DNA of 63,935 nucleotides, counting the filler, from Craspedostauros australis (taxonomy: Eukaryota): NCBI GenBank assembly GCA_030167865.1. It is 10 parts of 10 records of this genome, joined end to end, with 100 filler letters (N's around TTAATTAATTAA, not from the genome) between each part and the next. Parts side by side here need not be neighbours in the genome. Positions count along the whole stretch, not along the records: positions 53,353 to 57,947 come from JALAGF010003821.1; 9 more parts are not named here. One strand, written 5' to 3'. This document shows positions 6,448 through 62,668 of this stretch, one piece after another; the stretch's first letter is position 1, and the number at the start of each line of letters is the position of its first letter. The notes beneath the pieces were generated by a model. The model saw nothing but the letters and a program-made list of their open reading frames with translations, ran no database searches and had not been told where the DNA came from. The position numbers and the translations under genes were made by a program.

Positions 6448-6547
6448 NNNNNNNNNNNNNNNNNNNNNNNNNNNNNNNNNNNNNNNNNNNNTTAATTAAT
6501 TAANNNNNNNNNNNNNNNNNNNNNNNNNNNNNNNNNNNNNNNNNNNN
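6448..6547. other. Artificial contig spacer (N44-TTAATTAATTAA-N44); also at 9260-9359, 14412-14511, 38063-38162, 45099-45198, 47861-47960, 53253-53352, 57948-58047, 62569-62668
   Basis: Identical 100-bp structure each time; the 12-mer places stops in all six frames. Confidence 0.97.
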
Positions 6548-6789
6548 CCATGTTGAATGTGAACGGTGTTGAAGGTATTCCGTCTGCTGCGGGCAGCTGT
6601 GATGGATACGGTATAAACATTGCAACAAACCAACACCGCAAACGCCCTACAGCCTCACATGACTATTTTCTAACTGCTTTCTACTCCTTTCTGTTTTCAT
6701 TTCCATTTTCGCATAAATTGCCACTACTTACACTTGCGCTCATACTTACATGGACACATCATGGACCTGCACATCAATGCCATCCACAG

Positions 6790-8048
6790 AGGTAATCAAT
6801 CTGAGTTACAATGCGTTCAGCGAGGCTGCAACTATCCCATCAGAAGTCGGTGGGTTGGAATCATTGCAAAGCTTCACCGTGATGTCGTCCAACATCGGCG
6901 GCAACATACCAGCAGAGCTTGGACTGCTAAACAAACTCCAAGTCTTCAAGATGAAAGACAACAAGATCAGGGGCAATATACCCTCACACATCGGCAACAT
7001 GACCAGTCTGGAGAAGTTACATCTCAACTCTAACAACCTGTCGGGGCCCATCCCAGAAGAGATCAGCCAACTTGTCAACCTCAAGGAATTGGAAGTCAAC
7101 AACAATCGCATCACGGACTGGCCAGAATCACTATTTGAGAACCTCACAAAGCTCCGCTCCTTGCAAGTGCGACACAATCTGATCCAGAGTACCATCCCGC
7201 CATCCATCGGCAATCTCATTGACTTGCAGGGGTTCCATTTCAAAGGCAATGAAATGTCGGGCTGATTGCCATCTGGAATTGGGCTACTTCGATCGTTGAA
7301 AAGAATGTATGGAGGATCAACCGGGCTGAGTGGCCCACTCCCATCCGAGATCGGCAACCTCCCGAAGCTCGAATGGTTGATGTTACCCCACACCTTGCTG
7401 ACAGGCACCATTCCGCCCGAGATCGGCAATTTGCCTGCCATTGTCCGCATCAACATTGGAAATAAGTTACAGAACAATCCATCCAATACCACTTCACGAC
7501 TCGGGGGTACTTTACCAACCGAGGTGGGCCAGCTGAGCGCCCTTGTGCGGTTGTTCATCTCTGGCTCGCAGAGTATCAATGGTACCATACCCACGGAGTA
7601 TGGAAACTTGATTGCCATGACCCATTTTCAGGTACGGGACAACCGTCTGAGCGGAGCCCTCCCCAGCGAGCTTGGGCTCCTCACCAACATTCAACATCTC
7701 AGTCTGGAAGGCAATGAATTTTCCGGATCGATCATCTCCGAGCTTGGGCTCCTCACCAACATTCAACATCTCAATCTGGAAGGCAATGCATTTTCCGGAT
7801 CGATCATCTCCGAGCTTGGCAATCTGACGAAGATCGCCGCGTTGTATGTGGAATTGAACGATCTGACGGGGAGCATCCCTGCATCGATTTGCGCATCTGC
7901 GTTCCTGGAAGAGGCTGATGCGGATTGCGACAAGGTGGTGTGCACATGTTGCAATGGTCCCGTTTGCTGTGGGGCGATTGAGGACAAGACGAGTATCTTC
8001 GAAGAGGCGAACTGTCCTGTTGAAGCAGATGGAGGGCAGGGCACGTAA
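6790..8048 (+). pseudogene. Last exon of LRR receptor-like gene B with in-frame TGA at 7263-7265
   Basis: Acceptor catccacag|AG at 6789/6790; LRR register continues through EMSG*LPSGIG; ends with ADC.KVVCTCC cap and TAA 8048. Confidence 0.8.
7667..7819 (+). repeat. Recent tandem duplication of one 72-bp LRR unit
   Basis: 7667-7738 and 7739-7810 differ at only two positions (agt/aat, gaa/gca). Confidence 0.9.
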
Positions 8049-9359
8049 AGCAGAGTGATGTCTTTGGCCGCAGATTACTCAATTCCCTTTGCTACAATGT
8101 ACTGCGGTTCCCGGCATTGCACGAATGCGGCAGAGGATGGTACCATACACAGCATACTAGTGACACATACATGTGCATTGGTGTTTTTTTTCATGTGGAC
8201 AGATTGCCCCAGCGTCTGAAAGTGTAGCGCAGGAATGGGTCGGAGTCACATTGCCCGAAGTGCTTCATGGTTACGCTGAGGGTATGGTGGCTGCCTTGCG
8301 AATGGAAGCAGACATCGCGGGACACTGGTCTCTTCCATCGTTGGAGCAAGCCGAAACCTTGCGAAACGAAGCTCCCAAACGGGAGTTGCAGCTTGTCCTG
8401 AACATGACAGTCTTCCCAGATTTCGCAATTCCCGCTTTCCCGCTTCCCTACCTCCGTGGACTCCCTTCCATTTCCGCTTGTTGCTTCGTCAGCGCGCCTG
8501 GTCATATTCGTATGAGTACGGGCACGAATAGGCGTTATGAAATGATGTGAAGCTGACGAACTATCCAAACGCGACGTTGTTACTCCCACAAGACACGACC
8601 TGAACCCGCGTAATCAAGCACCGTATAAGACGTGTAATAACTCATATAATGCTGATGATGGATGGTACTGGTCTCATCCGATGGTGGCATCGGTGAGATC
8701 ACTGAGCGTCGAGGATATTCGTCGGTACCTGACAATGCTGACGACCTCTGCAGAGCCGTCAGGGCCACTGGTACCAAAGATCCCTCCTGCAACAACCGTT
8801 GCGGCTTTCGCACGAGTACGAAGCGTGGCATGAATAGTAGTATGGCACAGCCGTGGCATGAGGCGGTCGTGCGATTTCGGTTGCTGTCGTTTTGGCTCCT
8901 GCATTTTGTGGGAACAACAACGAGTCAGCGAGAATCTTAGCCATCGCGCTTAACGAATTCAATACCGCGGAAAACTGCATTTGATGTCAACTGGCATCGT
9001 GTGTCTGACTTTCCATATTAGAGGGGTTCGAGTGGCCCCAGAACTTGGGTACTGGGACACGCCGGGCTGTCCGAATTCCAGGGGGAGCCCCGCTATTGAA
9101 ACTTGTCTGGACGCAATGGAGACAGCCGCTTTCGTGGGGATTTAGGTCTTTGCAATGCCCATGTGACGTCACGATTCGCTTTCTTCCTTCCCTTTTTCCC
9201 GCACTGTTTCGTCAAACTGTTTGTTTCCTCATGGTACCAACATGGTTTTTCGCATTTTTNNNNNNNNNNNNNNNNNNNNNNNNNNNNNNNNNNNNNNNNN
9301 NNNTTAATTAATTAANNNNNNNNNNNNNNNNNNNNNNNNNNNNNNNNNNNNNNNNNNNN

Positions 9360-12300
9360 AACTTATTTCCAATGTTGATGCGGACAATGGCAGGCAAATT
9401 GCCGATCTCGGGCGGAATGGTGCCTGTCAGCAAGGTGTGGGGTAACATCAACCATTCGAGCTTCGGGAGGTTGCCGATCTCGGATGGGAGTGGGCCACTC
9501 AGCCCGGTTGATCCTCCATACATTCTTTTCAACGATCGAAGTAGCCCAATTCCAGATGGCAATCAGCCCGACATTTCATTGCCTTTGAAATGGAACCCCT
9601 GCAAGTCAATGAGATTGCCGATGGATGGCGGGATGGTACTCTGGATCAGATTGTGTCGCACTTGCAAGGAGCGGAGCTTTGTGAGGTTCTCAAATAGTGA
9701 TTCTGGCCAGTCCGTGATGCGATTGTTGTTGACTTCCAATTCCTTGAGGTTGACAAGTTGGCTGATCTCTTCTGGGATGGGCCCCGACAGGTTGTTAGAG
9801 TTGAGATGTAACTTCTCCAGACTGGTCATGTTGCCGATGTGTGAGGGTATATTGCCCCTGATCTTGTTGTCTTTCATCTTGAAGACTTGGAGTTTGTTTA
9901 GCAGTCCAAGCTCTGCTGGTATGTTGCCGCCGATGTTGGACGACATCACGGTGAAGCTTTGCAATGATTCCAACCCACCGACTTCTGATGGGATAGTTGC
10001 AGCCTCGCTGAACGCATTGTAACTCAGATTGATTACCTCTGTGGATGGCATTGATGTGCAGGTCCATGATGTGTCCATGTAAGTATGAGCGCAAGTGTAA
10101 GTAGTGGCAATTTATGCGAAAATGGAAATGAAAACAGAAAGGAGTAGAAAGCAGTTAGAAAATAGTCATGTGAGGCTGTAGGGCGTTTGCGGTGTTGGTT
10201 TGTTGCAATGTTTATACCGTATCCATCACAGCTGCCCGCAGCAGACGGAATACCTTCAACACCGTTCACATTCAACATGGAAGCAACTAAACGCGCAACT
10301 CAACACGCCAACAACCACAGACAGGAACGCAGAGACCTATGCTCAATACCACGTACCCAAACTCTTCATCAATCCAATCTCCGTTGCGATGGTCCCGTTC
10401 AGCACATTATTCTGCAGTTGGAGCTTGGCGATCGACTTGAGATGCTGCAAGGAAGATGGGAAGTCTCCCGTGAAGGTGTTCTGGGACAGATCAATCTGCA
10501 GTAACTTTTTCCAGTTCTTCAGCACTGGCTCCCACTCGTCCTCGGGGAAAAGCGTTCCTTCGAGCATGTTTTCGGAGAGTATCACAAAGGCCATGTTCTG
10601 GATCATCACCAGTGATGTTGGGATGGATCCTGTCAATAAGTTCTTTGACAGAGCGAGGGTGTCTGGTTGCATAGTTGCAAAGGTAGACGTGCAATGGTAT
10701 AAGTGACGTAGGGGTATACAGAGAACGATGGTGTTTGGATGGGCGGTTGTTAGATGTCGTGGAGCATTGAGCATCAACTCATTGGCGCAGGTGAGATTGT
10801 TGATCTACTGATCCAAACCATGCAATGAACAAATGGAAGAGAACCGAATTCACGGCCAGCCAGCACGCTGCAGCCGCCACCATGTCGATAGCCAACAATC
10901 AAACTTACTCAGTTGGCTCAGCATACCCAGCTCATCCGGGATGGGACCGACAAGGTTGTTGTCGGGCATGTTGATTCTCCGTACCGTCAGCTTGTTGTCG
11001 CAGGTGAGAAAATCGCCCCACTCGCAATGGTGCATGCCCTGCGTCATCCAGTCGTCCTTGACCAACCAGTCGTCGCCGCCTGTGGTATAATACAACACGA
11101 CCAAAGCGTAGCGCGCCGTCAAGTCATCCTCCGTCCAGCCATTGCCGTCGATATCGATGGCTCGACGCGTCTTTTGATCCTCGATGAGCCAATCAAACGC
11201 TTTGGATTGCGGCGTGTTCTTCACATCCAACTGATCCACAGTTGTTGGCGGCGACGCTGATCGAATGACATCCAACAGCTGCACCGATTCCGGCGACCAA
11301 GTGGGGGAGAAAGTGGGCATGGTGGTCGGTGATGCAGATGGCGTTGCTGTTGGTGTGGTCGTTGTGGATGATTCAGTGGGAACCATCGTGATATTGATCG
11401 CAATCAATGCACTGTCGCTATCGCCGCCACTGCCACTTTCTTCCAGTCCAACTGAAAGACCAATCGCAAGGGCGAGGATGGCAACGAGCGCCAACGCAAG
11501 TACAATCGCGTACTTGCGTTGCTGCTGTTTGCCTCGCTGAGCTGCGGCGAGTTCGATGGTCTTTTCCTGCTCTTGCTGCGTGACGACTTGCGCTTCGACG
11601 GCATTCTCCATGACCTCATCTCTCGCGATTTGGAGGAGCTCGCTGTCGTTGACCGCAACAGCTTCGACGGCCGTTGTATTGTCGTCACCCATGGCCAAGC
11701 TTTCCAAGTCGACGAGCTGCTCTTGGCTTGTGATGCTGCTGCTTATGTCGTGGATGTGAGCATAAGCCTGTTCGTCGATAGCGGGGTTGCTGGATCCGTT
11801 GTCGCGCACCCTGATTATCTGTGGCTCAATAGAGGCTTCCTCATCTGCGCTGAAGACGTTGGTGATATTGACATTATCATCGCTGTAATTGCCGCAATCA
11901 GTCTTGCCTTTCGTATCACTCCTGGCAGATTTCGATGGCACGGCGCCGGCCACAGCGGTGCGAGCTTGGTCAGCAGCCAAGGTGGCCTTCGCAGCTAGAT
12001 CGGCACTTGCCGCAGTGATGGCACTCCCTGATTGGATCGCGGTGCTCTTCGTGAGGCTGCCGGTGTTGGTGCATGAGGTGTTGTTATCGTCGTTGCTGGT
12101 GTTCGTCACGCGATGCGCTCCTACCGATCCACCGCTGTTGCGGGCAAGCTTGTCGATAGATCTTGCTCTCGCTGCGTTCGAGCCGAATTGAGAGGAATTC
12201 ATCGTGAGCGTAAAGGCTTCCTTCTTGCTCGACCCAGAACGGCGGGAGTCATTCTCGGGGGCTGAGGATGCTGATGCCGACGGAGTTGTGGAGGCTCTGG

Positions 12301-13825: not shown

Positions 13826-14096
13826 CTCAAGAATTTATCGGACTATGTAACGGACGTTTGGTCGAACGTAACGGACATTTGGATCGTGAAGAAACAGACA
13901 AAACTACTTCGCACAGAGTGACACAAGCCAACCCAAACCACAAGAACAGATCAGCGAAACAAGACAACAAGCCAGCTTTGCACTGAAGTATGGCATCATG
14001 CCAATGCAAATGNNNNNNNNNNNNNNNNNNNNNNNNNNNNNNNNNNNNNNNNNNNNNNNNNNNNNNNNNNNNNNNNAAGAGTTCTGCTCCATCATC

Positions 14097-14411: not shown

Positions 14412-14511
14412 NNNNNNNNNNNNNNNNNNNNNNNNNNNNNNNNNNNNNNNNNNNNTTAATTAATTAANNNNNNNNNNNNNNNNNNNNNNNNNNNNNNNNN
14501 NNNNNNNNNNN

Positions 14512-15485
14512 AACTTATTTCCAATGTTGATGCGGACAATGGCAGGCAAATTGCCGATCTCGGGCGGAATGGTGCCTGTCAGCAAGGTGTGGGGTAACAT
14601 CAACCATTCGAGCTTCGGGAGGTTGCCGATCTCGGATGGGAGTGGGCCACTCAGCCCGGTTGATCCTCCATACATTCTTTTCAACGATCGAAGTAGCCCA
14701 ATTCCAGATGGCAATCAGCCCGACATTTCATTGCCTTTGAAATGGAACCCCTGCAAGTCAATGAGATTGCCGATGGATGGCGGGATGGTACTCTGGATCA
14801 GATTGTGTCGCACTTGCAAGGAGCGGAGCTTTGTGAGGTTCTCAAATAGTGATTCTGGCCAGTCCGTGATGCGATTGTTGTTGACTTCCAATTCCTTGAG
14901 GTTGACAAGTTGGCTGATCTCTTCTGGGATGGGCCCCGACAGGTTGTTAGAGTTGAGATGTAACTTCTCCAGACTGGTCATGTTGCCGATGTGTGAGGGT
15001 ATATTGCCCCTGATCTTGTTGTCTTTCATCTTGAAGACTTGGAGTTTGTTTAGCAGTCCAAGCTCTGCTGGTATGTTGCCGCCGATGTTGGACGACATCA
15101 CGGTGAAGCTTTGCAATGATTCCAACCCACCGACTTCTGATGGGATAGTTGCAGCCTCGCTGAACGCATTGTAACTCAGATTGATTACCTCTGTGGATGG
15201 CATTGATGTGCAGGTCCATGATGTGTCCATGTAAGTATGAGCGCAAGTGTAAGTAGTGGCAATTTATGCGAAAATGGAAATGAAAACAGAAAGGAGTAGA
15301 AAGCAGTTAGAAAATAGTCATGTGAGGCTGTAGGGCGTTTGCGGTGTTGGTTTGTTGCAATGTTTATACCGTATCCATCACAGCTGCCCGCAGCAGACGG
15401 AATACCTTCAACACCGTTCACATTCAACATGGGAGCAACTCAACACGCAACTCAACGCGCAACTCAGCACGCCAACAACCACGGA
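14512..15485 (-). repeat. Third, 5'-truncated copy of the LRR gene B exon-3/intron-2 segment
   Basis: 14512-15431 matches 9360-10279; similarity decays in the intron by about 15485 and exons 1-2 do not follow. Confidence 0.85.
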
Positions 15486-37291: not shown

Positions 37292-38162
37292 GGTTGTTGT
37301 CGTTGCTGCTACTGTCGTTTTGTGCGAGATGCTCTTGTATTATAACAATATCTGTTATTGTGGTGCCTTGCTTTCAATTACAATCTCTCATTACATTATG
37401 GTAAATACAGTTGTACTTCGCTGGGTGAAAGTGTTGGTGTTTGTGCTTGCAAGTGCGTGCTGTTGGATGTGGGTATCGGAGTGAAGGTGGCCAAACACAC
37501 CAAGGAATGACTGTGGCCACCAGAACGCAAAACACGACACACGGCAGTGCCTGCGCAGCACGCAACAATAGTTCCACTGAGGACACGAAGACGTTAATAG
37601 AGGTTATTTAGACGTTTTAGGCAAGACCAACACCAGTTAGTATTCCGTGTCTTCTGCACGTTGTCAGGAGGATGATCCGTCCTTCAACCGGCTTTGACGC
37701 CGTTTGATGTTGAGAACGAGGCCGTGTCAGATGGTGGTGAAAACTGTAGTAGACTTGGAAGTAAGCTGTGAAGATTGTTTCTGATTGCTTGCTTTTTATG
37801 TGTTAAGCTTACTGTTGACAGGACGATCGAGTAAAAGGGCAGGGTTCATGCTGTCGTGCTTGAGCCGTTTGTGTTGTACAGCAACATGTCGTGGTGGTTC
37901 TGCGCATACTCAGCTGTTCAGTAGCCCCATCCGTAGAGCAGTACTTGATCCACGGGTATGGATATGCTTCAAGATGCCTGCAGGATTTGCAAGATGGTTA
38001 GCTGAACAGGTGGCGCAGTTGCATGAGCTGGAGGACGAGCAGAGCATGGATTGTGGTTCAACNNNNNNNNNNNNNNNNNNNNNNNNNNNNNNNNNNNNNN
38101 NNNNNNTTAATTAATTAANNNNNNNNNNNNNNNNNNNNNNNNNNNNNNNNNNNNNNNNNNNN

Positions 38163-39581
38163 ACGGAGCTGACTGACTACTTCCAACACGTGGGAGGAAG
38201 ATTTGAAGTAGCCAAAATCCAGGCACCATCCACAACGACGCTCGGTTGGCTGCTGTACTCCACACGACAGATTGACGCAGATGCTCTGGAAGAGGAGCTC
38301 ACCAAGCTCGCGAAGACACAGGTAGCAATCACGTGGAAACGGATCTCGGATGGTGAGAAGTACGACCCGAATCGGGATACAAAGAAAGACCCCCGGGCGT
38401 TACACGTGGAGTCAAGCACAGAAGACAGAGCTCTGGTGGCGAAGGTACTCGAAGTGTACTACAGCACACAGGCAAAGAAGTTCCCACTGGGGGTACGAAT
38501 GCGGATCATCACACCCCTCTCAGGAATCGTCAATACCGACATGAGGAAAGGGTGGTTCGAACTGAGGGAACGGCAGATGGAATGGTGTCTGAATGTGGTC
38601 GCAATGACGACATACGACATCATACCAGAATGCCTACAGGAAATTCCAGAAGGATCACACCTCACACTTCGGGAGATGATCATGAGAACCAAGTCGACTT
38701 CAGGCAACATCCGAACGCCTTTATTCACCTCGGTGGACAAACAGTGGAGGGGAAATGGCTATGTGCTCCAATTTCATCCAGACAAAACAGCGGAAGCCAG
38801 AATGGTGGTGAAAGGACTGCTGGTCAAACTGACCGCCGACTACGGAAGTGATGTGGAACGAGTATTCACTTCAATGGCCCGTGTGGAATCAAGGACGATG
38901 CGATGGGATGAAGAGTCCAAGAGAGTGATCTCGGAAAAAGACAAAGAGGTTGAAGCCGCGATGACCATAGACGAGGACATGCATTTCGTGACAGACAAGA
39001 CACAGGAAGAGTCCAGCGACGAGGAGGAGGAGAGATTCGAGAGCAACGTCAGAAAAGAGAAAGACTACGGCGAAGAGGATACTATTCCATCCATGAGGGA
39101 CAAGAAAGCATGGCGAAAAATTAAGGAGACGAAGACAGCACAAAGAAAGAAAGCGCAGAAGAAGAAGGAGGAGGAGGCTTCGGTAGCATCATCTATCACA
39201 GAAGGAAGCAGACAGACCACGGGAACACAACGAGAGAAAGTGGCAATGCTGCAAGAACAGATGGGGAAAATCCTGGAAGCGAGAGCACAAGGGTCGGTAA
39301 CATCGACACTCTCGGGTAGCACAGGACGGACGACAGGAACGACAAGGGCGATGATGGCATCGATGCAGAGACAGATGGAGGAGATGCAAAGAATGTTGAT
39401 ATCAACGAATGAGGAGAATGCAAGACTCAGGTCCGAGAGGCAAGATGTGCAAGAACGGACGGATGTAAGACCACCGACGGTCCAGTGCGATACACCAGCC
39501 ATCAGAATGGGCGACAACCAGGACGAGGTGCATGACAATGAAGGAAACGGGGAACCGCAAGGTGACCCGGAGAAGGGTTAG
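38163..39581 (+). CDS. LINE ORF1, C-terminal half with coiled-coil-like segments
   Basis: 38163-39328 is the reverse complement of 45199-46364; merged ORF1 is 931 aa. Confidence 0.85.
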   Translation, partial: TELTDYFQHVGGRFEVAKIQAPSTTTLGWLLYSTRQIDADALEEELTKLAKTQVAITWKRISDGEKYDPNRDTKKDPRALHVESSTEDRALVAKVLEVYYSTQAKKFPLGVRMRIITPLSGIVNTDMRKGWFELRERQMEWCLNVVAMTTYDIIPECLQEIPEGSHLTLREMIMRTKSTSGNIRTPLFTSVDKQWRGNGYVLQFHPDKTAEARMVVKGLLVKLTADYGSDVERVFTSMARVESRTMRWDEESKRVISEKDKEVEAAMTIDEDMHFVTDKTQEESSDEEEERFESNVRKEKDYGEEDTIPSMRDKKAWRKIKETKTAQRKKAQKKKEEEASVASSITEGSRQTTGTQREKVAMLQEQMGKILEARAQGSVTSTLSGSTGRTTGTTRAMMASMQRQMEEMQRMLISTNEENARLRSERQDVQERTDVRPPTVQCDTPAIRMGDNQDEVHDNEGNGEPQGDPEKG

Positions 39582-42500
39582 ACCCGCAGGGCAAGATCGA
39601 CAGCCAGTGGCAGCACGGCGATTGCATCTGAGCCCACAACAAGCGCCTACGGACGATAATGTCATACCGCGACAGCAAGACCGTAGAAACGACGAGGGAA
39701 GCAGAGGGGGAAGGATGATCAGGGTGAGGAGGAACATGCTGCGAAAACAGACAGGGCAACTAAGGATCGGACTGCAGAACTTCGGAGGGTTGAGAAGCAG
39801 AGCAGGGGATGTAGATGAAGGGCTGAAGAGATGGATGAATGAAGGGGAGTTTGATATCTTTGGAATAACGGAGGTGAACGTGGATTGGAGAACGACGACG
39901 ACAGAGCACTCACTCAAAGGAAGGATACAAGAGTGGTGGCCCACGGGAACGGCAGTGGCAAGGACGGCGAACAATCAGACGTGTGAACCGGCTCATGGGA
40001 AGCAATGGGGAGGAGTCGCTATGATTAGCAGATTCCAGGCCGCAATAAGAATAATGGAGCAAGGAGAAGACAGTACGAGATTGGGAAGATGGGTTTGGCA
40101 ACGATACCGAGGAGCACAACAACAAACGCTGCGAGTGGTGACGGCATACAGACCGTGCAGGCCGCGAAGCAAAGGGTTTTTGAATACACACGCACAGCAA
40201 CGAAGATACTTCAACGAGAGGGATAAGGACAGAGAGCCAAGGACAGCGATGATTGAGGATCTACAGAAGGAGATCATAAAGTGGCGAAGTGAGGGAGATC
40301 ACATTGTGGTGATAATGGATTGTAATGAAGACACCGATTCAACCACAATGACGAGATTCAGAGCAGCAACCGGGCTTCGCAACACAATGGAGTATGCAGG
40401 CAACGAAGTGCGACGGATGCCGACTCACCGCCTTGGGAAGGTACCGATCGATGGGATATTCGCAACAGCAGCAGTGAAAGTGGAAGGTGCCGGAATGAGC
40501 AACTGGGATGAAGGAATACAGATGCGGCAGGCAGATCATCGATGTCTGTGGATAGATATAAGCATGGAGGCAGTGCTGGGACAATCGATGGCGCAGCTGA
40601 GGAAAGCAGTGACAAGAAGAGTGAAAACGGAAGACCCAAGGATAGTCGATCGATTCAATATAGCATACGCGAAGCATCTGAAAATGCACAAAGCAAAGAA
40701 GCGAGCATTTCGGTTGGAGCGACAAGCAGCAACAGAATGGAATGTGGACATGGAGAAAGAAGCAGAAAGGTTGGATAGAATCAGGATCGAAGGAATCTGG
40801 AAAGCAGACAAAGCTTGTCGAAGGCTGAGGATGGGAGGAATCCCGTATTCCAGGGAGTATAAGATCGTCGAAGCCCGAATAGGCATGTGGAACAACATTG
40901 TCAGAAAAAGGAAAGGGGCAAATGTCTCGTCCACCACCATTGTAAGACTTGCAAAGCGGGCCCAGGAAGACAGGCCAGTGAAAGAACTAATGCGAGTGAA
41001 CGACGGGGAACTGGAGAAGGAACAACAAGCGGCGTATGAGGCATTGCGAACGTTCCGAACAAGAGCCACGAGGGCGAGAGAGAACTGGCTGGAAGGGCTA
41101 GCGACAGCAAGAGGCAGAGCGGAGTTACAACAACAGGCGAACACAGATGAGAAATCCGAGAAGCAAAGGCAGCAGAGGAGCGCAAAGGAGGCTACAGAGC
41201 AACAAATACGACAGCTGCGCAAGAAAGAGAGGGTGAGAGCAACGTATAAAAGGATCAGAACAGCCACGGGAAGCAATATAGCGGCGGGTATATCAATGGT
41301 GATAGCCCCGGACGGACAAGGGAATTGGGTAGAGCGGACGGGTAAAGAAGAAATTGAGAAGGGATGTATGGAAGAGAACAAGAGGAGGTTCAGGCAAACG
41401 GAGGAGACGCCATTTATGCATGGAGTCCTGGCGAAGGAATTCGGGTATTTGGGAGTGACTGAGGCAGCCGATAGAACGCTGAAGGGAGACTATCAACCGA
41501 AACCATGGGTCGATGAAGGAGCACGGAAGCTACTGCAAGGGTTGAAATCGGTGGCCAAACAACAAATCCCAGCAGGAATGACAACCGACGAATTCCAGCA
41601 AGGGTGGAAAAAGGCCAAGGAAGATACCTCTGCGGGGCCATCAGGGCTACACTTTGGGCACTTCAAGGCTATAGCTCACCATCGATCCAACTCGGACTTC
41701 GAAGCCAGCATGACGTCGGTGGCGATGAAGAGTGGGTACTCGTATAAGCGGTGGCGCAGAGGAACCGACGTGGAGATCATGAAGAAGGCCAACAGCTTTC
41801 GAGTGGACAAACTCAGAACGATTGTGCTGTTTGAAGCAGATTTCAATTTTGCGAATAAAGCCATCGGAAGGAAGGCGGCGAAGCAGGCGGAGCAGCAGAA
41901 GGGCTTCGCAGAAGAACAATATGGCAGCCGGAAAAGACACCGCGCCATTGATCACGCGCTGAACAAACAACTCACAATGGACTGGGCGAGACAAACACGA
42001 ACCCCGACAGTCCTGTGCACAAACGACCTAAAGAGCTGCTACGATCGGATCGTGCACTCGATAGCGTCGTTAGGATTGCAGAGACAAGGGATAGCGCAGT
42101 CGGAAGTGGTGTGCATGTTCAGCACGCTCCAGCACCTTGAGCATTACATCCGCACGGCGTACGGCGAATCCAAGCATACGTATGGAGGAAGCGGATGGGT
42201 GGTGCCTATGCAAGGTATTTACCAAGGAAACGGAGCAGGGCCTGTCATATGGGCAGTGATCTCGTTGCCTATATTGGAAGTGATGAAGAAGGAAGGACAT
42301 ACCGCGCGGTTTACGACAGCAGTAAGCGGCGAAGAAGTGCAGATGGTAGGATACGCATTTGTGGATGATACGGACCTTGTGGTGAATGCGCGACAAGGAG
42401 AAGGCATACAGGAGGCAATCCGGCGCATGCAACAAAGCGTAACAAGGTGGGAAAGCCTGGCGAGGGCGACAGGAGGAGCACTAGTTGTCGACAAATGCAT

Positions 42501-45098
42501 GTGGTGGGCGATCGATTTCAGATGGGAAGAAGACGGATCATGGAGGTACGCAGAGGACGACGAGAATCCTGCGAGTCTGATGATGCGCGGGACAACAGGG
42601 CAGCTGCAGAAGATGCCAAGAAGCGCGGCGGGTCAGGCATTCGAGACGCTCGGCGTCAAGCTCGCTCCGGATGGAAACGGGTCTGCGATTGAATCGACGC
42701 TGCAGGGCAAGGCCGAGAAATGGGTAGAAACGGTACGGGCATGGCGAATGAGGAAAGAGGATGCAGAAGTGGCAATGCGGACAGTATTGATGAAGAAGCT
42801 GGAATACGTCCTGCCGGTGGCGCAGCTCTCGCGAACTCAATGCGATAACGTGATGCGCCCCGTGTGGAGCACGATGATGTCAAAAATCGGATTCAATAAA
42901 GGATTCCCCAGAGCCATGGCGTACGCGTCGCACGAGTGGCTTGGGGCCAATATGCATGAGCTACACACGACGCAGGTGGTAGAACACGTGAAGATGGTAT
43001 TGGAGCACGGAAGCAGGGACAACATGACAGGCCGGCTGCTAAGAGGCAGCATACAGGCGATGAAAACCGAAGTGGGCGTGGGCAACTCGGCGTTCGAGAT
43101 TGATTTCAATCAGTGGGCATTCCTGGCGACAGATTGTTGGGTCAAGACGGTCTGGCGAGAAACGCATGAATGCAATATAAGGTTGAAAGAAAAAACAGAC
43201 ACGGCTGGGTTGGTCCATGAAAGAGACGAGTGGTTGATGGTGGCGCTAATGAGAGAAGGATACAGCAGAGAGCAACGGGTCCGATTGAACAGGTGCAGAA
43301 TAGTGATGAAGGTGGTTAGTGTGGCAGACGTGGTCGAAGCAAGGCGACGACGATCAGTGGCGAGCAGTCCAATGGAAAATGGCAGCAAGTGGAGAGGAAG
43401 AGAGCACATCCAATGGCCGAGACAGGGACCGCTGCCACGGAAAGATTGGATGTTATGGAAACAAGCTATGACGCGTATAGCCAAGAAAGCAAGGCACAGT
43501 GAGGAATGGGAACTGGAACAGGTCGGCGCGGTACGGGCCGAGAATGGAAGAAAACTGTGGACGCGCGATGGGCCGAGGAAGTGGTCTGAATGGAGCAGCA
43601 GAGAAGGAATGGTTCCGGGCATGGAGCGATACCAACGTACGCAACGAGCATCGAGCGGGCCACCGGAAGGCGGGCGAGCGGTGTTTGTGCGAGAAGTGCG
43701 TCAGGAGCTACACGTGGTTGGGACAGGCGGCAGAGTCCAGCGGAGTCAATCCAAGTCTGACAAACGATTGAGCAAGGCGGAAAAGCAGTGGCTGGAGGCA
43801 GTGGCAGCAGGGGATGCAGTGGTCAGTACAGATGGATCGTTCAAAAGCGGCAGAAGCACGGCGGCGTACTCACTCAACAAGCATGGACGGCGCAAGGGGT
43901 TGGTGACAGCAGCAGCAGTGGTGCAAGGTCGCAAACAAGTGCAGAGTGCGTACCGTGCAGAGCTAGGAGGGATTCTCCAGGCGCTGCGAAGAGTCGAAAG
44001 CATCATGCAGCGCGACCGCCAACGGCATGACACAGCTGGTAAGACAGTGGTAGTGGCGTGTGACAACAAAATGGCAGGCATCCACGCAGTCCAATACACG
44101 CAAGACGTCAGTACGGCAGTTCAGCACTTCGACATCCTCAGGGAGATACGGGGTATACAACGCAGGTTACCAGTACAACTACGGTACAAGCACGTATATG
44201 GCCACCAGCTGGAACGAGACCGCGGCGTGGCACAGGATGAATTTGCGTTTTGGAACGATGAAGTCGACAAGCAGGCCGGAGCAGCGCAAATGAGCGAAGC
44301 TGCATGTAGTGACAATGAATGGGGAGCAAATGAGTGGTCGGTGTGGCTGGACGGCGAGAAGGTATGCAAGAGTTTGACGGAGACGCTCCGCAACTACGTA
44401 CAAGGCCAACGGACCAAAGGGTGGCAACGCAAAGTGGGCCGTATCCGTAAGGAGCAGATGTCAGCAGTGGATATTGTAGCGGCGAGATTAGCCATGGGGC
44501 GAATCACGACAAGGCGCAGGCAATGGGTGGCAAAGCATGCATGCAGTTTCGGACCCGTTGGCAGAAATATGCACAAATGGAAATTCTGGGCGACCAGCCT
44601 GTGCCCAATATGCGGGCAGTGCGAGGAAACGACGGACCACGTCATGCAGTGCCAGCACCCAACGGCTGTAGCGGTGCGACGGGCAGCTATGAAAGAGTGG
44701 GAAACAGGAATGCTGGCAGGGAGGGGAAGCGGGTTGATGGTACACGAATTAGTTCGGCAGGTAGGCGCATGGTGCGACGGGTTGAGGTTGGAGAACGAGC
44801 AAGGGCCACAACTGAGCAAGGCCGTTGAAGAGCAGGCAAGTATAGGGTGGAATATGATGGTGAGGGGCCGGTGGTCTAAGAAGTGGGGGCTAATGCAAGA
44901 GCAAACAATGGAGCTCCACGAACAGCCAGGGACGGCGGCGAACTGGATTGCAAGAGCGATAGTGGGGTTGTGGGAAGTACGGTGGAAGGCGTGGGAAGCG
45001 AGAAATAAGGTACTGCACGAAAGCGAGTCAGGGATCGCGGTCGCAAAGCTGACACGAGAGGCAGCGCGTGCAGTACGCAAAGAATGGAGGAAGGGCGT
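39532..45098 (+). CDS. LINE ORF2 polyprotein: APE endonuclease, reverse transcriptase, RNase H, CCHC zinc knuckle (3' end cut by gap)
   Basis: APE: GITEVN, MDCN, IDGIF, ADHR; RT: NDLKSCYDRI, QGIYQGNGAGP, FVDD; RNase H: STDGS, AYRAELGG, ACDN, HVYGH, NDEVDKQA; CPICGQCEETTDHVMQC. Confidence 0.93.
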
Positions 45099-45198
45099 NN
45101 NNNNNNNNNNNNNNNNNNNNNNNNNNNNNNNNNNNNNNNNNNTTAATTAATTAANNNNNNNNNNNNNNNNNNNNNNNNNNNNNNNNNNNNNNNNNNNN

Positions 45199-47741: not shown

Positions 47742-47960
47742 CGTTGGTTCGTTGTCTTACTGGTTATTTTTGCTGTCTGTTGTCTTTCTTTTATTTGTTT
47801 ATTCGTGTTTGTTTGCTGCGACAATTTCTTCCGGAATTTTGGTTCCTTTTGGAAATTGTGNNNNNNNNNNNNNNNNNNNNNNNNNNNNNNNNNNNNNNNN
47901 NNNNTTAATTAATTAANNNNNNNNNNNNNNNNNNNNNNNNNNNNNNNNNNNNNNNNNNNN

Positions 47961-53252: not shown

Positions 53253-53353
53253 NNNNNNNNNNNNNNNNNNNNNNNNNNNNNNNNNNNNNNNNNNNNTTAA
53301 TTAATTAANNNNNNNNNNNNNNNNNNNNNNNNNNNNNNNNNNNNNNNNNNNNG

Positions 53354-56300
53354 TTCAGCCTCAAGCGGAAATCGTCGAGCGACGTCGATGCCGTCGGCAG
53401 TATCGATGAACAGCACATCACCATCGTGTCTGCTCCCGCAGATGGCGACGATGCCGGCGATGATGCCGACTGGGCCGAACACTCGGAGCCCCTGCGGCTC
53501 TCCAAACGAGATGCGCATCGCAGTCACCAGTCCGGCGACGTAAGCAGGGCGTCCACCACGAGCACCACAGAAATGTCCGTCTCCAGCGCGTCGGATTACC
53601 AATCATCCAGGCGGGAAAGCAACCTCAGAGGCTCGATACTCATGCGCAACGTCTCGCAACGCCCCGTCCGAATGCTCAGCATCAACGCCAATCGATTGAG
53701 GGAGTACTCTCACGAGCGGCTGGATTTCAGTCGGATCAGGCTCGTGGGCAGAAGCGAGGAGATGAAGACACTGAACCAGATGCTGGATCGTCACGTCTCC
53801 GAATACGCGCAAATGCCTTCCGCGTCGTCTACCTCAGGCCGCGATGCTCCCACAGAACGGCCGATGCCGAAGCTTGCCCGCTCTCAAAGCCGGCGTCATG
53901 AATCGCGTCGCAGCCTGGCGCTGTTGGCCGGCCTGTCCGGTTCGGGCAAGTCCATGCTGGCTCATCAGCTGCAGCCCGAGGCGGTGCGACGCAAGCTCTT
54001 CTTCGTTTCTGTCAAATCGTCACTTGTTCGTGCCAGGGCGGGAATCGAACCCGCACCCTCCCGGGGAGGACAAAAGTAAATCCAGTACTTCACGCGTCCC
54101 AGCGCTCCTGACACGTTCGGTACAAGTGAGATATATATACCCAACAGCAACAGTTGTCAGTTTCCACCAAGTTCGAGAACAATCAGAACGACCAACAGCC
54201 GCTCGAGAGCGTGAGGTCGGCCATCAGCAAGCTCTGCTTCAGCATCGCGCAGTTGCAGCACGATACGGCGTCGGCATCAATTCCTTGCCCGGCCGCATCC
54301 AAAAGCCGCGAGCAGCTGCGCCAGTTCCGGAAGGACCAGTACAAGAGGTTGAAAACGGCGATTTCGAGGGGATTGGGACGCACGGCACTCGCCGTCCTCT
54401 CGAAGCAGGTGCCGAACCTCGTTGATATTGTGGGGACGAAGCATCGTCCACATATGAACCCCGAGAGCGGCAGAGGCGAGGGCACGTTCAGCGACTCCTG
54501 CAGCATCGGGAGCTTCTCCACCATCAGCGACTTGCATCATGCCGAACGTAGCACGCTGGATTACGGCAAGCAGGCAGATCAGCTCCGATTCGCCATCATT
54601 CGGTTCTTCCAGATCGTCACGTCCATCACACCCATCGTCTGGATCGCCGACGATCTGCAGTGGGCTGACAAAGCCTCGATGGAAGTCATCGAGAAGTGCC
54701 TGCTGGATGGCAGAGTCTCGTCCCTCATGGTCGTGGCCACCTATCGATCCAACGAGATCTCCCACACACTGAAAACAGCCTTGGACAAGTTGAAGGCGAC
54801 GCATCACGAACGATCGCTGCACCTGGCACGCATCAACGTCGACGATTTCAGCACCGACAACGTCAAAGAGCTGCTGATACAGCTGCTCGATCCAAAGTCT
54901 CCACGCATGGTCGACCAGCTCGCCTCCACCATCTACGAAAAGACCCACGGTAACGTCTTCTTCATCCAGCACTTCATCCGCATGCTGGTCGACAACGACT
55001 TGCTCAACTACAACATCGGCCTGACGAAGTGGTCCTGGAACGATGACAATGTTCGCAAACGATCATCGGCAACGAACAACGTCCTCGACCTGCTCACGGA
55101 CAAGTTGCAACACTCCGAGGAGGCGCACATCGTGCTCCCGCTCATGGCGTGCCTGGGCAACACCACCACCGTCGACATGATCCGCCGTGCCGTCGAAGGA
55201 TTCTCCGAGCATTCGGGACACTCTGACTGGTTTCGCAACATGTTTGGCCAGTCGCCCCTTGACGTGGCCAAGGAGCTATCGATGATACTGGACACGTGCC
55301 AAAAGGAAGGCTTCATCTTGCAATCCAGCCAGCAGTACAATGTGGTTAGCACAGCGTCTCCATCAAATTCCGGTGAAGACGAGAAGAACGCAGCGGGGGA
55401 TAACGATAGTGGTGCCATCAACCAGCGAAGAGAAGCATCCAACCAAGCCATCGCCAGGAATCTCAACGCTAACCCCAACGCCAGCACCAACGCCAACGCC
55501 AACGCCAACACCAGCGTAGATACAGATATAAACACAGGCGTGGACACAGGCATGGACGCAGGCACTGAGAAGTCCGTTTCCTTCGTGCATGACAAAGTCC
55601 TGGAAGCTGCGCTCAACCTCGTGCCTTCCGACAAGCTCCCCGAGCTGCGGTTCCGTATCGGCGAGATCTTCGTCGAGAGCCTCGACGATGAAGACCTGCG
55701 GGATTCCATCTTCGTCATCGCCAACCTCATCAATTCTCGTCTCGATTTGCTCCCGGCGCATGTTGGATCACGGTGCCATCCCTTGCGATTCCGCGTGTCT
55801 CAGCTCAACTACCAGGCGGGATGTGATTCCGTCGCATGCGCGTCATTCCGAATAGCTGCAGATTACTTCAAGCATGCCATCGAACTGCTGCCAAACGATC
55901 ACTGGGTGGGCGAATACACAATGTACTCGGTCCGTCTCTACACAGCTGCCGCCGAATGCGCGTCTGTCAATTCAGACCTACGCTTGTTGGAGGAGTACGC
56001 GCAGCCAGTGCAAGATGCGGACTGCCCGCTAGCAGACAAGATGCGAGTCTATCACGTGCTCCTTGGCACGGGGAGGAGGATCGCAAAGCCTGGCGATGTT
56101 TCCTTCGAACCGATCGCACTTGGTCTGGAGACCTTGCGCAAGCTAGGGTGCCGGCTTCCGAAGAGTAAGGCAATGCAAAAATTCGCGACGATCACTGGCC
56201 TGATCGGTCTGTCGTCGAAGGTGAAGAACAAGTGGTCGCCTGCCGTGCTAGAAAAGCTCGAGATTACAACGGACAAAGAGGCGCGTGCCATCATGGTGAC

Positions 56301-57492
56301 GTTAGACACTTTAGGCGACGTCTGTTACATGATGCAGCCCGACTTGATGCCGCTGATGATTCTGGAGAACGTCCACCAATCTTTCAAGCGTGGCCTCACC
56401 ACGTGGTCGCCTCCCGCATTGGCCTACTCCGGCTTGATCATCAATTGGTTCTTGGGGAACGTGAAGGCAGCCACGGCCTACGCTGAGCATGCCATGAAGT
56501 TATTGGAGGAGATGGATTGCCGTGACGCGGAGAGCCGGACCATGGTGACGGCCTACCTCGGGGTTTTCCATTGGACTCGGCCCTTCGCCATTTGTCGGCC
56601 CGAGCTGATGAAGACCTACGAAATCGGAATGTCAACAGGCGATGTGGATGCTGCCGGATGGGCCATCTTTCAGTTCCATTACATTGGTGTGTACACTGGC
56701 AGCAACCTACGACAAATGGAAGAGGGTTGTCTGCTGTACACGCAAGTTATGGATGATCATGGCATGGTGAGGCAAAGGGAAGTATTCCGTATGCTGCAGC
56801 AGGTCATATTGAATTTGCTGGGACGGTCACCTCATACGACGATGCTCAAGGGTGAAGCCTTCGACGAAGACGTGTCGCTTCCAAAGTACAAAGAAGATGG
56901 ACAGGACCTATTGGTCCTGGGCACCGGCAGTAACAAACTACAACTGGCCATGTACTTTGGAGAGCTCCAGCTTTGTGCGGACTTGTCGCTAACATCCTTT
57001 CCAATTATCATGAAGAACGCCCCAGGACAACCGGTCATCGTCTACGCCACATTGGCGGCTGCATTGAGCTGCAGCTACGCAGCGGGGAAGCATTCTAAGA
57101 AGCACAAAACGTACAAACAGTACAAGGCAATCGCCAAGAAGAGCCGGGGGCATCTGGAGAAATGGACTCGGGAAGGATGTCCCAACACGGATCACTTGTT
57201 GGAGATGGTCAACGGTGAACGATTCGGTTGGAAAGGGAAAACCGGGGTGGCGTATGCCCATTTCAAAGAGTGCATCCGCTTGTCAGGACGGAGAGGGCAG
57301 CTCAACATTCAGGCTTTGGCCAATGAGAGGTTAGCGGAGATGTGGCTGCGGAATGGAGAGCACGACGATGCTTCCTATCATTTCGACGAGGCACTGAGAT
57401 TGTACGGAGAATGGGGCGCACCAGCAAAGGTGCGGATCCTGCGAAAGCGATTGGAGGCGACGGGGATGCTGCAAGTAGACGCATACGATTAA
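53354..57492 (+). CDS. STAND-class P-loop ATPase with helical TPR-like C-terminus (COG3899/AAA_16-like), interrupted by a 150-bp insertion; 5' end at gap
   Basis: LVGRSEE, Walker A GLSGSGKS, Walker B WIADDLQWAD, THGNVFFI, FVHDKV, QALANER...YGEWGAPAKV; removing 54010-54164 fuses the two ORFs as LFFVSTKFEN. Confidence 0.88.
54029..54114 (-). tRNA. tRNA-like cloverleaf with long variable arm, anticodon position GGA (Ser-like); probably element-borne and not a translational tRNA
   Basis: Minus strand: GTGTCAGG/CCTGGCAC acceptor, GCG-CTGGGA-CGC D arm, GAAGTA-CTGGATT-TACTTT anticodon arm, CCTCC-CCG-GGAGG variable arm, GCGGG-TTCGATT-CCCGC T arm. Confidence 0.75.
54131..54139 (-). promoter_or_regulatory. 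TATA box upstream of the tRNA-like sequence inside the element
   Basis: TATATATAT beginning 25 nt upstream of the cloverleaf 5' end. Confidence 0.55.
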
Positions 57493-58093
57493 GTGTTAAA
57501 CGAGCCATCAAGATCAGATACGGGCACGTCCACATCACGAGAGAGATTGTGATATCAAGTCCAGCAGTGGACTCGGGGGAAGGGATTCCTACCACAACTC
57601 AGAAGGAAATTGTGACGCGGTTTTCGCCATTCTACTGGTGGTCTCCGAAATTCAAGAAGTCCAACGAGTTCTGCCGCAATTGACACGATGGACAATATGT
57701 AGTCTGAATTTAGAATCCAAAAATGTAACGAGACTTCGTGAGTCGTCGTGCGTACTCGTATGTATTACAGAGATTTGTGGAAGCGCCGTCCATACAGCCG
57801 CATCTCCTGTCGTCGCTGCCGGCGTCTCATTCGGAGTTGTTGCTGCTGTGTTCGTAGTCTTCGTCGTCAATACAGTCAGCTTTCATTTGGTACAACAGCA
57901 CCTTCAGCGCTCTGTCCGGATCAATCGAAAGAAATGACAATGGATTTNNNNNNNNNNNNNNNNNNNNNNNNNNNNNNNNNNNNNNNNNNNNTTAATTAAT
58001 TAANNNNNNNNNNNNNNNNNNNNNNNNNNNNNNNNNNNNNNNNNNNNTGGGATTGGGACAGCTGCATCGACGAGTACTTACTTCGAGACCATC

Positions 58094-62568: not shown

Positions 62569-62668
62569 NNNNNNNNNNNNNNNNNNNNNNNNNNNNNNNN
62601 NNNNNNNNNNNNTTAATTAATTAANNNNNNNNNNNNNNNNNNNNNNNNNNNNNNNNNNNNNNNNNNNN

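Follow-up and report, generated by a model that had tools for sequence, protein, structure and literature searches.

A 150-bp segment lying within a 63,935-nucleotide stretch of Craspedostauros australis DNA (the window) is, we are confident, a real multi-copy mobile element that has inserted in an exon. The host is a gene for an ATPase with an AAA_16 domain and TPR-like repeats. Within the element and antisense to the gene there is a TATA element followed by a degenerate tRNA-like sequence. We tentatively regard the element as the solo long terminal repeat (LTR) of a Helenus-type terminal-repeat retrotransposon in miniature (TRIM), also designated TRIMp3; membership of this class is unproven, and the assignment falls somewhat short of being probable. 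The coordinates of all features are collected in Table 1.

The element, 54010-54159, is bordered on both sides by GTTTC, a perfect 5-bp direct repeat, and its outermost bases are TG and CA. The original prediction had described a 150-bp TG..CA segment with these boundaries and this flanking repeat, and on the plus strand its coordinates are correct. It had also called the termini near-inverted, and here the outcome is mixed, since five of the first six positions agree (a manual count from the printed ends) while the likeness is weak overall, with agreement at 8 of 20 positions. TG..CA termini together with a 5-bp duplication are the textbook signature of an LTR. The element displays, at one insertion, the combination of TG..CA ends and a target-site duplication of 4-5 bp that is a trait of LTR retrotransposons, and it does not display the inverted repeats, some 10 bp long at least, that are expected at the termini of an inverted-repeat DNA transposon or of a miniature inverted-repeat transposable element (MITE). 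On the minus strand the element ends in ...GATTTGACA. An 8-bp inverted repeat, with arm limits read by eye, flanks the tRNA-like unit on both sides and lengthens its acceptor stem when the element is folded as a whole to minimum energy. One reading frame is open across the whole element (54009-54161, plus strand, second frame, 51 codons); its 51-residue product had no match in a representative protein library and none among longer proteins.

The protein encoded on either side of the element provides a test of whether the 150 bases are foreign to the gene. The Walker A motif GLSGSGKS is encoded at 53930-53953, and the element splits the plus-strand gene 51 bases downstream from it, in the region that encodes the nucleotide-binding domain of this signalling-type ATPase. 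The open frames on the two sides (53309..54079 and 54130..57492) are offset in such a way that a removal of 2 mod 3 bases is needed to join them, and 155 bases, the element plus one copy of the repeat, fits this requirement. Their removal yields ...RRKLFFVSTKFENN... and the protein sequence LFFVSTKFE. The downstream frame is colinear with a homologue, P0003, over about 1,200 residues (E 8e-150). Among the matches listed, the best shows 33% identity to the host protein, and the named nearest relatives, from Cylindrotheca fusiformis, C. closterium and a Bacillariaceae metagenome-assembled genome, show 24-27%. A motif located 3' of Walker A (aromatic-aromatic-aliphatic-x-G/A-K-F/Y-D/E) is present in 108 of the 120 listed homologues, and its spacing is nearly constant in the 108 printed segments; by manual reading, the excised junction LFFVSTKFE fits these without a gap. 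Six ways of crossing the site were translated and scored on a profile built from 105 of the 120 homologues, with 12 excluded for want of the motif and 3 because of a long insert (P0003 included). Excision of 155 bases scored 52.6 bits, four canonical GT..AG options scored 45.0, 43.6, 42.3 and 42.2, and read-through scored 30.9. The claim that deletion of the element and one repeat restores the ATPase frame is thus upheld, excision being the best of the six, and the sequence and the junction test both agree with insertion into an exon with duplication of a 5-bp target. Same-species protein fragments that would cross the mRNA junction were sought and none was found; one 102-residue relative, with 57% identity, lies off the site. 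If the element is left in the transcript, the host protein terminates 24 codons into the read-through, after Walker A.

Further evidence comes from copies elsewhere. A single public run (X1) was listed as containing sequence words of the stretch, a small share of them, in contigs whose kind was guessed as RNA; no run on record as RNA was among those listed. These contigs span the element and the 3' end of the gene, not the exon flanks of the insertion. The 3' end of the host gene is carried at 99% identity (6 changes in 623 bases), and the run must therefore derive from the same or a very close organism. The matches of three contig records begin exactly at 54010 and their left flanks are mutually unlike (agreement 0.62). 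Two more left contexts were seen, with matches that begin at 54003 and 54008, and the match of one record (record 5) stops at 54159. These match ends coincide with the ends implied by the direct repeat, which are therefore the ends of the repeated unit, and the unlike left flanks combined with shared ends indicate a multi-copy mobile element with sharp ends, in several contexts, as had been anticipated. An 84-base contig is identical to the window over 54010-54093 and has a word depth of 127, compared with 15-23 in the flanked records; because the contigs are of uncertain kind, this depth is not a copy number. Judged from sequence, the element is an insertion on two independent grounds, the protein junction and the contig ends of run X1.

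Two features of the run are less easily accommodated. The left flank in record 1 resembles the TCGTTTC of the window, with at most one change in 36 aligned bases, and TC stands at the end of the left flank in the window as well as in records 1 and 5. In addition, a 213-base contig runs on from 54159 to 54008, so that two bases (TC) separate the element ends; this junction could stem from two copies in tandem, from a nested insertion or from the closure of a circle. Elsewhere in the same gene, a low-complexity coding stretch rich in Asn, Ala, Thr and Asp (55475-55515) matches several high-depth X1 contigs that continue into unlike sequence, and this is a simple repeat common to other loci. A self-search revealed no second copy of 54010-54159 within the window. 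Metagenomes searched for a 22-mer taken from the element's left end gave no matches, and neither did a scan of viral contigs for the element. When the metagenomes were searched again, for a 22-mer pattern based on the variable and T arms, five loci were returned, which matched in the pattern only and contained no tRNAs; they were rejected as chance matches.

The interior of the element is dominated by its tRNA-like unit. The minus-strand order that had been proposed, namely TATATATAT, 16 nt, an 86-nt cloverleaf and a perfect B box, is correct throughout. In another copy the length of TATATATAT differs by 2 bases, one contig skipping 2 bases at 54131. ARAGORN identifies the cloverleaf as tRNA-Ser(GGA), 54114..54029 on the minus strand, 86 nt in length. 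A check of the tRNAscan/Infernal type had been suggested with the original prediction and, run with Rfam, it gave a divided answer: a scan of the whole window found nothing at the gathering score, and at a relaxed threshold the sole match in the clan was tRNA-Sec, which scored 27.4 bits (E 0.002) where the gathering score is 47. Minimum-energy folding does give the cloverleaf, but its z-score is no better than -1.87, and 11 of 200 shuffled sequences fold equally well. In standard numbering, and by manual reading, the unit has G8, U14 and U37 where U8, A14 and a purine are usual in tRNAs, and box A is only partly retained, with G in place of T at tRNA position 8. The B box taken by itself is within chance expectation (36 of 100 shuffles of the window yield at least one match), and no further B boxes or tRNAs were found in the window by ARAGORN and a motif search.

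A T4 run occurs within the cloverleaf, in the anticodon and variable region. The proposed absence of a run of four or more Ts between the cloverleaf and the end of the element was confirmed, and it extends over the 676 bases to the start of the contig, since the plus strand at 53353-54029 has no run of four or more As and the minus strand accordingly no such run of Ts. The unit thus departs from a functional nuclear tRNA-Ser gene in its covariance-model score, at positions 8, 14 and 37, and in having no downstream T-run. Of the claim that it is a complete tRNA-like gene, the ARAGORN cloverleaf survives, and against completeness stand its degeneracy, the subthreshold Rfam score and the internal T4. 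Its probable ancestor is a serine tRNA, as indicated by the anticodon, the length of the variable arm and the G at the discriminator position. Overall, the unit is a tRNA-derived module rather than a working tRNA gene.

Table 1. Positions in the window of the element, its parts, the host gene and the contig joints
Feature	Position	Strand	Basis
Upstream part of ATPase gene, open to contig start	53354..54004	+	AAA_16 residues 193-236
Left target-site duplication copy, GTTTC	54005..54009		Sequence; removing 155 bases gives best-scoring junction
Candidate 149-nt GT..AG intron, hypothetical	54005..54153	+	GT from left duplication copy; CAG acceptor 6 bases inside right end
150-bp mobile element, TG...CA, TGTCAAATCG...ACAGTTGTCA	54010..54159	- (strand of tRNA-like unit)	Sequence; contig match ends
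Inverted repeat, left arm, TCACTTGT, 8 bp	54020..54027		Pairs in minimum-energy fold of whole element
Degenerate tRNA-like sequence of class II with GGA anticodon, a long variable arm and G as discriminator	54029..54114	-	ARAGORN, Rfam, fold
B box, GGTTCGATTCC	54041..54051	-	Exact match
Inverted repeat, right arm, ACAAGTGA, 8 bp	54122..54129		Sequence and whole-element fold
TATA element, TATATATAT	54131..54139	-	16 bases upstream of tRNA-like 5' end
Right target-site duplication copy, GTTTC	54160..54164		Sequence
Downstream part of ATPase gene: rest of AAA_16 domain and TPR-like repeats, to stop codon	54165..57492	+	Domain search, homologue colinearity
Spacers	6448-6547, 9260-9359, 14412-14511, 38063-38162, 45099-45198, 47861-47960, 53253-53352, 57948-58047, 62569-62668		Contig joints

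Which class of element would produce this arrangement? Helenus comprises TRIMs with tRNA-derived sequence in their LTRs and has been described from fungi, animals and Selaginella (Kojima 2024, PMC10886601). In the fungal families the autonomous mover is of the Copia type (PMC10886601). If the Craspedostauros element is of this kind, its parent would have been a miniature LTR retrotransposon with a tRNA-derived RNA polymerase III (Pol III) promoter in its LTRs, and an autonomous LTR element would have mobilized it in trans. A non-autonomous copy would have integrated in the coding exon of the AAA_16/TPR ATPase gene with duplication of the target GTTTC, and recombination between its two LTRs would have left the 150-bp solo LTR. 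What remains would place on the antisense strand of the gene a compact unit of the Pol III type, made up of TATA, 16 bases, a degenerate tRNA-Ser-like cloverleaf and an intact B box, with no terminator. The tRNA-like part may act as a Pol III promoter, or may aid packaging or priming, as the original prediction had proposed. Both the LTR class and the Pol III activity are what we infer from this arrangement. The insertion is probably recent, because both halves of the host frame are intact and the 84-base contig is identical. Copies of this sort raise the number of tRNA genes predicted in a genome, and they can inactivate genes or alter their structure.

Several observations weigh against this assignment. 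Both flanks have been seen for one copy only, so that the 5-bp duplication comes from a single insertion, and the terminal inverted likeness is weak. The element occurs as a single copy in the window, with no second LTR, primer-binding site (PBS) or polypurine tract (PPT) seen. No integrase, RVT_2 or gag was found among the scanned open reading frames (ORFs) of the window (43 proteins), and 64 kb is far too short a stretch for judging whether an autonomous LTR partner exists; the only reverse transcriptase among them is that of a long interspersed element (LINE)-like ORF and is accompanied by an endonuclease domain. The junction that leads from 54159 to 54008 is not predicted by a simple solo-LTR picture. 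The flank of record 1 hints at a preferred target, and such likeness of targets is commoner for site-selective transposases than for Copia-type integrases. Finally, the X1 contigs are of uncertain kind, "RNA" being a guess, and their depth is not a measure of copy number.

Some of these observations lend weight to a second explanation, which we regard as possible and on balance unlikely, that we are dealing with a small non-autonomous element whose class is a different one or unknown. It might, for example, be moved by cut-and-paste, through an integrase-like transposase with 5-bp target duplications and a preference for targets resembling TCGTTTC; in that case the tRNA-like unit would ride along as a passenger or serve as a structural module. 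The likeness of two independent left flanks (window and record 1), the TC with which the flanks finish in those two contexts and in record 5, the head-to-tail junction with its 2-base spacer, and the lack of LTR-element proteins among the scanned ORFs are all in keeping with this. So is the existence of unclassified small elements in diatoms, inasmuch as the six introner families of Thalassiosira oceanica, the one diatom listed there with any, are all of class "Unknown" (PMC12130899, Dataset S2). It is opposed by the TG..CA ends with their 5-bp duplication, which are those of an LTR, and no transposase candidate was seen; moreover, the likeness between flanks comes from one contig record only. 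The terminal inverted repeats, with 8 of 20 positions in agreement, also count against it, and by this count they are too poor for a MITE.

A tRNA-like head, a B box and the absence of an own terminator in a short, dispersed element are also what would be expected of a tRNA-derived short interspersed element (SINE), copied through target-primed reverse transcription by a LINE-like element. The window contains a candidate for the latter, a long ORF at 39469-45098 (plus strand, 1,876 codons, still open where the contig stops) that shows weak matches to endonuclease/exonuclease/phosphatase, RVT_1 and zf-RVT domains. From these domains the ORF is a LINE-like non-LTR retrotransposon whose 3' end lies beyond the contig; it had been considered as a possible LTR-type reverse transcriptase and was rejected as such on account of its LINE-like domains, and no direct repeats were found in its contig. 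A SINE should begin at or near the 5' end of its tRNA-like part, whereas 45 bases that include the TATA precede it here and belong to the repeat, since record 5 reaches 54159. A Pol III transcript would omit this leader, so its presence inside the repeat counts against a SINE. There is also no A-rich or simple-repeat 3' tail; the element ends as given above, and three contigs end their match at the same base, 54010. A LINE-derived tail falls outside this test, and the element has no significant match to the contig of the LINE-like ORF (best 20 bases, E 1.1), which does not contain the 3' end of the LINE. Given the leader, the missing tail and the sharp far end, an origin as a SINE is disfavoured and seems improbable.

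The position of the element raises a further question, whether the host transcript might be repaired by splicing. At the edge of the exon no canonical donor is in frame other than the GT of the left duplication copy (54005), and in-frame acceptors are provided by CAG ending at 54153 or 54147, which would add 2 or 4 residues within the conserved motif. The donor, GTTTCT, is weak and matches the usual 5' splice sites poorly. Removal of 54005..54153 gives ...LFFLSVSTKFE..., the 45.0-bit option of the junction test, compared with 52.6 bits for exact excision. The repeat allows six registers for the exact 155-base removal, and none of them has a GT..AG boundary. The BLASTP alignment of the downstream frame with P0003 begins at LSVSTKFE / FSVNSKFD. 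P0003 (FFFSVNSKFD) was therefore considered as a protein that shares the 2-residue insertion of the spliced form, and this was rejected, for the excised form aligns gap-free too; the identities are 5 of 12 for the excised and 6 of 12 for the spliced form (manual count), and P0003 consequently does not discriminate between them.

Based on this geometry, one can imagine a target-selective, tRNA-like-bearing miniature element of the LTR type that acts as a diatom introner, a scheme to which we give little credence. The duplicated GTTTC would supply the GT donor, and the element would supply a CAG acceptor six bases from its own end. Each insertion in the orientation seen here would be removed as a 149-base intron and would leave a 6-base scar, in frame at any codon phase and stop-free in all three. 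At the same time, each copy would put a terminator-free antisense Pol III unit within a gene. If this were true, an element of the TRIMp3 type would be linked to intron gain, and a copy found to be spliced would offer a concrete case in which the end of a retroelement makes an intron with an in-frame scar.

The remaining explanation, an ordinary old spliceosomal intron (GT 54005..AG 54153) with a tRNA gene on the opposite strand and a GTTTC repeat by chance, has the in-frame GT..AG pair on its side and a BLASTP alignment to P0003 that begins as if LS were exonic, and is nevertheless very improbable, because the 150 bases recur in unrelated contexts with ends at 54010 and 54159 rather than at the intron ends, the excised form beats the spliced form by 7.6 bits, P0003 aligns gap-free to the former too and so does not discriminate, and the tRNA-like part is below the Rfam thresholds and has no terminator.

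The setting of the element is that of a composite sequence. The Craspedostauros australis window strings together ten contigs, with 44 N + TTAATTAATTAA + 44 N as the spacer at each joint, and genes on opposite sides of a spacer are therefore unlinked; the contig that bears the element occupies 53353-57947. A 64-N gap at 14013-14076 is distinct from these spacers. The G+C content of the window is 52%, and its ORFs are eukaryotic in look, with leucine-rich repeat (LRR), ankyrin/HAD, ubiE-type methyltransferase, AMP-binding enzyme and LINE-like reverse transcriptase products. Two contigs open identically, 9360-10312 and 14512-15463 showing 99.5% identity over 953 bases, the first 921 of them identical. 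An LRR-coding ORF at 6717-7262 (plus strand) has Pfam scores equal to those of 9566-10111 (minus strand). The two contig openings and the two LRR ORFs look like repeated or allelic pieces of LRR genes at contig ends.

Comparison with known systems places the element nearest to the miniature LTR elements, with resemblances to others. It shares with SINE2 elements a tRNA-like internal promoter, the lack of an own terminator, short length and dispersal, and differs from them in its 45-base TATA leader upstream of the tRNA-like part, its TG..CA ends and the absence of a tail. It is like the introners treated by Gozashti et al. (2025, PMC12130899) in being a short multi-copy element in a coding exon with an in-frame GT..AG, and in the terms of that paper the duplication would provide a co-opted 5' site and the element itself the 3' site. 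The same source reports that in Panicum virgatum the solo LTRs of one Copia family serve as functional introns. Among its diatoms, however, the splice-column spans of the Thalassiosira oceanica families are 74-194 bases (by subtraction), none being 149, and seven other diatom assemblies are given there with no introners (PMC12130899).

Cassandra TRIMs and Ajax likewise carry a Pol III small-RNA promoter within a miniature LTR, 5S-derived there and tRNA-derived here (PMC10886601). In Cassandra the Pol III terminators of the 5S sequence are conserved and transcription ends in the 5S part of the 3' LTR (PMC10886601), whereas the sole T4 of the present element lies inside its tRNA-like part. As precedent for a tRNA-bearing LTR the original prediction had named Ajax, from oomycetes; both the name and the taxon were mistaken, for Ajax carries a piece of 5S rRNA and comes from two nemerteans, and the tRNA-bearing group is Helenus (PMC10886601). 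Nowhere in the text of PMC10886601 is there mention of an oomycete, a stramenopile or a diatom. An LTR with a tRNA-derived sequence is thus already in print (PMC10886601), and only the host lineage would be new. No report of a diatom TRIM or of Helenus in a diatom was found in a literature search whose scope was without most subscription journals, Repbase and Dfam.

From Helenus itself the element differs in that no paired LTRs, PBS or PPT were seen with the one copy, in a box A that is only partly kept, and in a TATA ahead of the tRNA-like part, the word TATA being absent from the text of PMC10886601. Its host, a diatom-like stramenopile, is outside the phyla of Table 1 of that paper, and the 2024 description covers fungi, animals and one lycophyte only (PMC10886601); were the LTR structure to be confirmed, Helenus-type elements would extend to stramenopile algae. 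There are also likenesses. The 150-bp unit falls within the 120-323 bp published for Helenus LTRs, and its 5-bp target duplication is that of the fungal and Selaginella families (PMC10886601). Helenus LTRs have a tRNA-like sequence with boxes A and B, and the tRNA parts were mostly judged non-functional (PMC10886601); the present element likewise has an internal tRNA-like sequence, retains box A in part and the B box in full, and is unlikely to yield a working tRNA. Many solo LTRs with 5-bp duplications are on record for Helenus (PMC10886601), and it is this form that the element in the ATPase gene most resembles.

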